DNA of 45,599 nucleotides from NCBI RefSeq assembly GCF_006345805.1, contig NW_021834947.1:1-45599 (forward strand), read 5' to 3'. How positions within the stretch are numbered: the first letter of the stretch is position 1; every line of letters starts with the position of its first letter. The notes beneath the pieces are model-generated. The model was given only the letters and a program-made list of their open reading frames with translations. It was not told where the DNA came from and made no database searches. Positions 2,579 to 35,580 of this stretch are shown in pieces. The stretch comes from Octopus sinensis. Taxonomy: Eukaryota. The position numbers were made by a program, and so were the translations under genes.

Positions 2579-2992
2579 AAGCAAAATAAGCATGTGCTTT
2601 TAGGGCATCAAGGGAAGGAGGGGGAGGAGGCACCACAGAAATGGTAAGTGGTTTACGGCACAAATGAATTCACTTTAAACTTGCTAAAGTAACATTCGGG
2701 ATGCGTTTATCTCTACTAAGTATAGATGCAGATGTGTTACCTAAGATTAATTTTGAGGATTTGATCAAAGACTTTGCAATTCAAGAAAGTAGGAGGAAAC
2801 TTTTCAAATATGTAAAAAGTGGAAGTATGCAAAAATAAACATTATTTTCCCTCTTACTGTTTTGTTTCGTTTGAAAATAAAAATTTATTTTATGGTTTGT
2901 TATTGTTTATACTTTGAATTACATAATCTTTTATGGGGGTACCAAAATCTTTTTAAGTGCTTAGGGCCTCGATGGGTCTTAATCCAACCCTG
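2579..2992 (+). mobile_element. 3' fragment of a hAT DNA transposon with C-terminal transposase remnant, inside a SINE B copy
   Basis: About 2710-2805 translates to SLLSIDADVLPKINFEDLIKDFAIQESRRKLF, resembling the C-terminal dimerisation region of hAT/ZMYM1-like transposases. The fragment ends in tcttaatccaaccctg (CAGGG-type hAT terminus), and SINE B resumes at ccctttcgggg. Confidence 0.7.
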
Positions 2993-3310
2993 CCCTTTCG
3001 GGGTTGATATATTAGCGAAGTACTGGTGTCGATGTAGTGGCTTAAGGCCTCGATGGGTCTTAATCCAACCCTGCCCTTTCGGGGTTGATATACTAGAGTA
3101 TCAGCGAAGTACTGGTGTCGATGTAGTGGCTTAAGGCCTCGATGGGTCTTAATCCAACCCTGCCCTTTCGGGGTTGATATACTAGAGTATCAGCGAAGTA
3201 CTGGTGTCGATGTAGTGGATTAAGGTCGCGATGGGTCTTAATCCAACCCTGCCCTTTCGGGGTTGATATACTAGAGTACCAGCGAAGTACTGGTGTCGAT
3301 GTAGTGGACT
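2958..3310 (+). repeat. Tandem array of four units (81, 89, 89, ~80 bp) made of a hAT terminus plus a SINE B fragment
   Basis: gatgggtcttaatccaaccctgccctttcggggttgatat starts at 2971, 3052, 3141 and 3230. Confidence 0.95.
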
Positions 3311-6264: not shown

Positions 6265-6797
6265 AATAAAATAGAACATATGCATATATATAAACATATA
6301 TGTACGTACCTACCTCTACATGTACATATACACGCATATATATATATATATAATGTCAAATTTTTCTCCTGGCATTTTTGGTCAGCACGAAACTTCTGCC
6401 AATAATGGGTGTTTCAACGTGACCTTTTCCGACTGCACGAAACATTTGTGTTCAAAGAATGAATCAGTCAATCGTTTTAAAGATTTCGTTTCGAGAGAAG
6501 AAAAAAACGCAATAAATAAATAAATAAATAAATAAAAATATTCTTTGAAAAGCAATAAATCTCAAGGTTTTATAATTTGTTATGGCACTAAAGCTTGCCA
6601 CATTGAATTATAAGTGTGTGCCACCCACAACATATCAAACGCACAAATACACAATTGTGCTACACATCAGAGGCACATTACAAGAAATATGTACGCAGAC
6701 ACATGTTGGTGGAGCGTAGCTATTAGTGTGGGTTTACCAAGTTCGCTTCTTAATCTCGCGGTTCCGTGTTCGAATTTCTGCACTGCTGTGTAACCTC

Positions 6798-7212
6798 GGA
6801 TCTTTTCGGTTTGAACTGAACTTTTTTTCTAGCGGTGTCATATGAAATTGTCACCCATAATTATGACCCTAGTATCAACCTATTGCATTTCAATCTGTTT
6901 TAGGGTTAGGGTTAGGGGAGAAGGTATGTTTTTTTCTTCACAAATGTAAATAAACCCAATCTGTTTCTTAAACGAGGGACATATTCATACGGTACAGAAT
7001 GTTTTTTTTACCTCAATACACGTCAGTGATTGGTTGAAATTGCAGAAATTGAAGAAAAAAAAACAACAAATATCTTACAAACTATAGAATTTTCTCAATA
7101 AAGCCAAGAGAAAAAGATGTTTTATAAACACATTCTACCAGTATACGAAGTTTAAAAGTGTTTAGTTACGTGGAAAATATTTTTTTAAATGCCGTTCAAA
7201 CCGAAAAGATCC
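6798..7212. mobile_element. 415-bp non-autonomous TIR element (MITE) with internal TTAGGG repeats, flanked by 34-bp direct repeats
   Basis: Perfect 19-bp TIRs ggatcttttcggtttgaac (6798-6816) and gttcaaaccgaaaagatcc (7194-7212). (TTAGGG)3 near 6900-6917. Flanks 6764-6797 and 7213-7246 are 30/34 identical. Confidence 0.9.
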
Positions 7213-7344
7213 CCGTGTTCGAATCTCTGCACTGCTGTGCAATTTCTACCATAGTTATTATTAAACCCACGTCTTTTGAGTAAATTTTGAATAGACGGAA
7301 AGTATGGACGGGTGACCCATGCATGTTTTGGTCGATAGAATTTA

Positions 7345-7467
7345 TAGCCCGAGGCTATAGTAGAAGACACTTACCCAAGGGGCCACGCAGTGGGACCGAA
7401 CCCGGAACCATGTGGTTGGTAAGCAAGCTATTTGCCACACAGCCACTTCTACGCCTATATATATATA

Positions 7468-35180: not shown

Positions 35181-35580
35181 TACTGAAATATATTATTATA
35201 AAGTCTGAATCAGCGAAAGCATTTTAGCTATAAGATTATAAAATATTTAGAAATCTTTATAAAACAGTTTAAAAGGTGGAACACGAAGCAGATAAACTTG
35301 TAAACCAGGGCTGTGGGAGTCGGAGTCGGGAATAGTTAAGGGGTAAGTGGAGTCGGAGTCTGAATAGTTTTTACCGACTCTACTGAAATATATTATTATA
35401 AAGTCCGAATCAGCGAAAGCATTTTAGCTATAAGATTATAAAAATATTTAGAAATCTTTATAAAACAGTTTAAAAGGTGGAACACGAAGTAGATAAACTT
35501 GTAAACCAGGGCTGTGGAGTCGGAATCGGGAATAGTTAAGGGGTAACTGGAGTCGGAGTCAGTAAAGTTTTTACCGACTC
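35181..35580. repeat. 200-bp tandem duplication spanning flank plus the left end of a hAT MITE
   Basis: Units 35181-35380 and 35381-35580, highly similar. Confidence 0.95.

Follow-up and report, generated by a model that had tools for sequence, protein, structure and literature searches.

Hybrid element insertion by P elements leaves flanking duplications and reciprocal deletions at the element termini. P-element hybrid insertion and the alternative transposition of Ac/Ds, both of which yield duplications and reciprocal deletions ending at element termini (PMC3744419), are among the described systems that most resemble the locus presented below. The maize Ac/Ds duplications involve two elements and span 8 kb to 5.3 Mb, unlike those of the family in our window, and a maize survey that used different criteria counted three such cases in 7,611 hAT insertions (PMC3744419). 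Ectopic recombination in Galileo gives exchanged TSDs, a different target site at each end and chimeric copies (PMC2775673), all of which have a likeness in one of our loci, L362. The pseudo-TSD model for HERV-K addresses flanking duplications of 111–250 bp where 5–6 bp is the norm, and unlike the window family it begins from pre-existing segmental duplications (PMC5488345). In contrast to both Galileo and HERV-K, the two sites here flank a DNA transposon in direct orientation, at a spacing of tens of bases. IS1549 and IS1634 are similar in their long, variable direct repeats of 8–514 bp (PMC2266710), but there long repeats are the rule, whereas in our family 8 bp is the norm and 2% of copies have them; the transposases also belong to a different class.

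Merlin elements (IS1016/IS1595-related, PF12762) are defined by TIRs starting 5'-GG, a TSD of 8 or 9 bp and a TIR length of 24–462 bp, and are abundant in an octopus (PMC8101967). The family described here shares the 5'-GG TIRs, the 8-bp TSD and internal tandem repeats with them. It differs in that about 2% of its copies have duplications of 34–185 bp, and a coding partner with the same TIR was not found. Our literature search, which left most subscription papers outside, turned up no description of long TSDs in Merlin elements; the MITE family itself may already be catalogued. Overall, we consider it probable (roughly 85%) that this is an ordinary 8-bp family, and that the 34-bp repeat at the window locus is a side product involving two target sites.

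The window element and its 34-bp direct repeat

The element was found in the window, by which we mean the whole stretch of 45,599 nucleotides that was analysed. The features are as follows.

6726..7302, + strand: decayed SINE-like host repeat, split by the MITE (profile alignment)
6764..6797, + strand: left copy of the 34-bp host duplication (direct-repeat comparison, run contigs)
6790..6797, + strand: putative 8-bp target site for the left end (1.68 bits, 94th percentile)
6798..7212, no strand assigned: 415-bp non-autonomous MITE, likely Merlin-type (TIRs, family comparison)
6798..6816, + strand: left TIR, starting GG, 19 bp perfect (end comparison)
6900..6917, + strand: TTAGGG three times within the MITE (unit number variable across the family)
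7194..7212, - strand: right TIR (end comparison)
7213..7220, + strand: putative 8-bp target site for the right end (0.64 bits, 83rd percentile)
7213..7246, + strand: right copy of the 34-bp host duplication (direct-repeat comparison, run contig)

The original prediction, of a MITE whose perfect 19-bp TIRs directly abut two copies of a 34-bp direct repeat, is confirmed in its anatomy. The repeat adjoins the TIRs exactly, without extension on either side, and its copies are identical at 30/34 positions, with C/T at all four of the differences. The TIRs are perfect over 19 bp, match at 23 of their outermost 26 positions and begin GGATC; the 415 bp between and including these paired ends are non-coding, with a longest stop-free frame of 45 aa. 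The repeat is not a chance match, as the same anchored-overlap test gave no match in 600 mismatched flank pairs. Positions 7239–7246 are the other copy of the putative left-end site and score 3.11 bits on the target matrix described below, while 6764–6771 are the other copy of the putative right-end site; the two putative sites are 26 bp apart. No microhomology is evident at the junctions.

As far as could be tested in the contigs of the runs compared, the duplication is not an assembly artefact. The left junction is present with 0–2 differences in contigs of three runs (X15 and X17, 6547–6849; X16, 6377–6821), which carry three different organism labels, and the right junction is present in one contig, from run X1, possibly the source DNA itself. 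The eight runs yielded no empty allele, which says little, as the right flank is covered in X1 and uncovered in the other seven. In a DNA search this right flank was unique genome-wide.

The duplicated 34 bp had been assigned to the host, as part of a decayed SINE, and this too is upheld. A model of the site with a single 34-mer aligns colinearly with a SINE-like profile, built from 120 of 123 collected copies, at 19.4 bits (E 1.9e-5); the best of 300 shuffles reached 3.7 bits, and either flank by itself gave no significant match. Since the one-copy model aligns colinearly, the duplicated DNA is that of the host repeat, and before the insertion the 34-mer was probably present once. The SINE-like repeat may be tRNA-derived, and the neighbouring SINE presumably resembles octopod SINEs; an Rfam search of the repeat gave no match. 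A young copy of the abundant SINE-like repeat, which served as the profile seed, lies 135 bp from the MITE (7347–7450, - strand). The window also has two tandem arrays, one at 2959–3307 (89-bp unit, 3.3 copies, 97% matches) and one at 35181–35580 (200-bp unit, two copies, 95% matches).

The family and its departures from an 8-bp TSD

The family is large: a 28-nt word from its end has 11,175 exact matches in the 2.7-Gb genome, compared to none for the reversed control. Across 100 aligned copies the median divergence from the majority letter is 3.4%, and the window copy stands at 5.4%. Copies were gathered with flanks of ~1–1.5 kb by best-match and exact-word searches, a non-random sampling that favours intact copies; 24 loci without paired ends were left out of the TSD counts, and an 8-bp TSD was called when at least six of the eight positions matched. 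In a first set of 268 distinct two-ended copies, 218 have an 8-bp TSD by this measure (157 perfect, 52 at 7/8, nine at 6/8), six have a long duplication and 44 are classed as other. Nineteen of these 44 show an abutting match of 5–10 bp, and a few members of the class (L217, L265) are composites whose ends were paired wrongly and whose TSDs are normal. A second set of 55 copies gave 39 with an 8-bp TSD (22 perfect, 13 at 7/8, four at 6/8), one long duplication and 15 others. The control rate is 8/600 mismatched pairs. In total, 257 of the 323 two-ended copies have an 8-bp TSD, 179 of them perfect, and the favoured target is weakly palindromic, (C/G)A....T(C/G). Short, fixed TSDs in other copies had been named as an outcome that would refute the original prediction, and on these counts the proposal of an uncharacterised transposase making widely staggered cuts falls. 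A second GG-ended MITE family also has mostly 8-bp TSDs, with not a single long duplication in 30 loci (too few to serve as a control).

Long duplications are nonetheless a recurrent minority, seen in 7/323 copies (2.2%, 95% interval 0.9–4.4%; 6/322 excluding the window copy) as against 0/600 in a mismatched-flank control. Their lengths are 34, 34/35, 66/69, 72, 74, 139/140 and 184/185 bp, so that L416 (34/35 bp) is a second case of about 34 bp, and they occur in both right-end subtypes. The TIR ends of these copies are intact, bar one first-base change, and no excision footprint was found beside six of the duplications. Other candidates were rejected: L013, L094 and L223 have a perfect 8-bp TSD within host arrays, L104 is (TA)n, L021 is of low complexity, L243 is an ambiguous 25 bp with an 11-bp insert, and L423 scores low. 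The two copies of the long duplications differ at 37/567 positions (6.5%), versus 4.1% for 8-bp TSDs, a value that is biased low, and this comparison does not separate the possible routes.

We scored the junctions with a target matrix made from 153 perfect TSDs. At six long-duplication loci the junction 8-mers average 1.0 bit; the background mean is -1.07, and true sites from an independent set average 0.68. The score peaks in the exact TIR register and is lower at each shift of 1–12 bases, and the distal half of the 8-mers is also target-like. Across all seven loci, the test gives P=5e-5 under two random sites, P=0.023 under one true and one random site, and P=0.54 under two true sites; at L017, L270 and L416, one junction each scores poorly. 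With seven loci and a weak matrix, this suggests that both junctions of the long duplications look like ordinary target sites. Much the same is seen in 15 curated copies with no TSD, the junctions of which are target-like (mean 0.36 bit, 0/20,000 resamples as high). No junction-anchored duplication is present within ~4.7 kb of these 15 (2.3 kb on one side of one copy), and such copies in the family keep intact ends. Target-like junctions with no duplication nearby are what would be expected of reciprocal deletions.

One locus, L362 (G000:C3:159384500-159394400), has three family copies in tandem and a fourth ~230 bp upstream. The outer two of the three inserted independently, 1.19 kb from each other, and have separate 8-bp TSDs (CTAGATGA for E1, AGACATTG for E3). 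The copy between them, E2, has the left flank of E3 and the right flank of E1, that is, exchanged target sites, and is itself flanked by two 1.19-kb copies that are 99.7% alike. At its informative columns, the first three follow E3 and nearly all later ones follow E1, bar a low-complexity patch. The middle copy is thus a chimera with a recombinant structure, and we read the locus as recombination because three copies and chimerism are the marks published for it, as opposed to alternative transposition (PMC3744419, PMC2775673). Insertions of the family are also clustered, 6/80 gaps being shorter than 5 kb where 0.3 are expected (P=0.005 even at five-fold local density). Rare haplotypes were found in 4/6 long-duplication copies versus 7/165 others, a post hoc count in which three copies rest on one site and two had been picked up because they resemble the window copy; in a fresh sample, 0/7 copies with those haplotypes had a long duplication, and the signal was not reproduced. 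At seven loci (L019, L034, L092, L094, L099, L122 and L217) a whole and a partial element are joined at a TIR, with the outer 8-bp TSD mostly kept. At L164:42-381, 147-bp units of the right end stand in tandem, each with a terminal TIR.

Possible routes to a long duplication

The specific reading in which the window element is a Merlin-type MITE with a 34-bp pseudo-TSD, each end at its own 8-bp site and the sites 26 bp apart, seems to us slightly better than an even bet. Among the rival routes to such a structure, recombination between neighbouring insertions ranks first, though for the window locus it is inferred and we hold it tentatively, at a little short of even odds. The family inserts in local clusters, and two copies would have inserted 26 bp apart on homologous chromosomes. 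A crossover within the elements would then yield a recombinant that takes its left flank from the downstream insertion and its right flank from the upstream one. The stretch lying between the two sites would thereby be doubled around a single element, giving a long pseudo-TSD and no footprint, and in the reciprocal product DNA would be deleted and the element would lack a TSD. The recombinant structure of L362, the clustering, and a different true target site at each end (by the statistical test, n=7) argue for this route. It requires, however, two insertions less than 200 bp apart on different haplotypes, and clustering was seen at 1–4 kb; L362 has three copies on the same chromosome, unlike the single-element loci, and chimerism is clear there only, the haplotype signal for single elements having come to 0/7 in the fresh sample. 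Hybrid-element (alternative) transposition, for which we see a real but minor chance, would, after replication, take one end from each of two sister copies and insert them dozens of bases away on the empty homologue. One product would gain a duplicated flank and its partner would lose DNA, with no second insertion needed; P elements and Ac/Ds do so (PMC3744419), and target-like junctions, intact TIRs, lack of footprints and the existence of a no-TSD class are all consistent with it. The seven composites would fit as well, but nested insertion plus recombination also accounts for them, and the scores at their internal landing sites are uneven (-2.7 to +4.2 bits). The route further demands homologue pairing during transposition, and a three-copy chimera such as L362 is the pattern assigned to recombination (PMC3744419, PMC2775673, as above).

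Somewhat less probable still is a rare two-site integration, in which the ends would join opposite strands 26–180 bp apart and repair would fill the long gaps. A single step would account for the short spacing, the undamaged ends, the lack of footprints and the deletions, and the repeats of IS1549 and IS1634, of which this would be a low-frequency eukaryotic parallel, range over 8–514 bp, with no model proposed (PMC2266710). The duplication lengths look clustered, two at 34–35 and three at 66–74 bp, but unconvincingly so (P=0.025–0.087 by the null used), and no periodicity among them was significant. Target-like distal halves of the 8-mers, as in complete concerted sites, speak against it, and L362 is left unexplained. 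The stronger version, that Merlin transposases at times join their ends to two sites with preferred spacings of ~35, 70, 140 and 185 bp, perhaps set by nucleosome geometry, strikes us as doubtful. We find it very improbable that the long duplications come from repair after a normal 8-bp insertion, in which a break at one end of the element would be mended by copying the opposite flank from a TSD-primed start, with one true junction only. The low-scoring junction in 3/7 loci would agree with such copying, but the one-true-site model gives P=0.016–0.028, the TIR ends are intact bar the single first-base change, and microhomology is not evident at the window junctions. The original prediction had offered a repair-like route as its second choice: an irregular event that recurs at ~2% is borne out, whereas intact TIRs and target-like 8-mers at both junctions favour two sites chosen by a transposase over a repair join. 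Its first choice, an uncharacterised transposase with a normally wide staggered cut, would be in keeping with a 34-bp repeat that is real, with its near-match in length at L416 and with the fact that no partner transposase was identified. We give it almost no credence: it is refuted by the 8-bp norm, and the long duplications run from 34 to 185 bp and are found in either right-end subtype. The three leading routes (recombination, hybrid-element transposition and two-site integration) would give the same anatomy, and none of them needs a new transposase.

The window element is therefore likely an ordinary Merlin-type MITE that belongs to a minority rearranged in known ways, and a single long TSD is not a safe basis for naming a new superfamily. 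With long duplications in ~2% of copies, and no-TSD copies in a similar or larger share, among thousands of copies, one genome would hold at least 100 natural records of flank duplication or deletion around a TIR element. Such a family could help to tell recombination from hybrid-element insertion and from two-site integration, as yet an open matter for HERV-K and IS1634 too. If Merlin elements do in fact integrate at two sites, the family would be the eukaryotic parallel to long-repeat insertion of the IS1634 type, and one genome would offer hundreds of such events to count.

Probable Merlin affiliation and other elements in the genome

The TIRs start with 5'-GG, many copies have self-matching ends of 29 bp, and the family, though not the window's own copy, has the 8-bp TSD; GG ends and an 8-bp TSD together are the Merlin pattern. 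The genome has at least 150 matches to PF12762, the Merlin transposase, and several coding Merlin elements in it have GG TIRs and 8-bp TSDs. No transposase was found between the family's own TIRs in 50 of 150 PF12762 matches, with 14 stretches extended to ~10 kb, or near unpaired MITE ends, so membership is judged from ends and TSD only. By these marks the family was likely moved by a Merlin (IS1595-like) transposase. TIRs of hAT elements, which also have an 8-bp TSD, begin (C/T)A, and an hAT identity was rejected on the GGATC ends. Retro-DNA, a DNA transposon copied by LINE machinery, loses its TIRs and has a poly-A tail (PMC11195612); here both TIRs are intact and there is no such tail. An IS1634-type element was set aside as well, long duplications not being the usual outcome (7/323).

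Two candidate partners were rejected, a 7-kb Merlin family (L172–L174) because its ends differ, and L158, which is single-copy and for which the closing TIR was not found. The latter has a single-copy open Merlin ORF of 319 aa (L158:2926-3885, - strand) with EIGET as the first catalytic motif where relatives have EIDES, and pieces of a sister MITE or sister TIR on the upstream side only; the ORF is possibly domesticated. A young GG-ended MITE (L438–L467, the family of L069:634-1039) has 40/40 scored matches on small high-numbered contigs and none on C1–C30, which may reflect a co-sequenced organism or an unplaced compartment. Pairs of opposite-strand Merlin transposase matches ~1 kb apart occur at L169, G000:C5:62817868-62819945 and G000:C18:28004992-28007069, and L169 is a long palindrome. 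L172, L173 and L174, on three chromosomes, are Merlin elements of more than 7.3 kb that are 99.4–99.7% alike and have identical 308-aa ORFs, and they are a recently active family.
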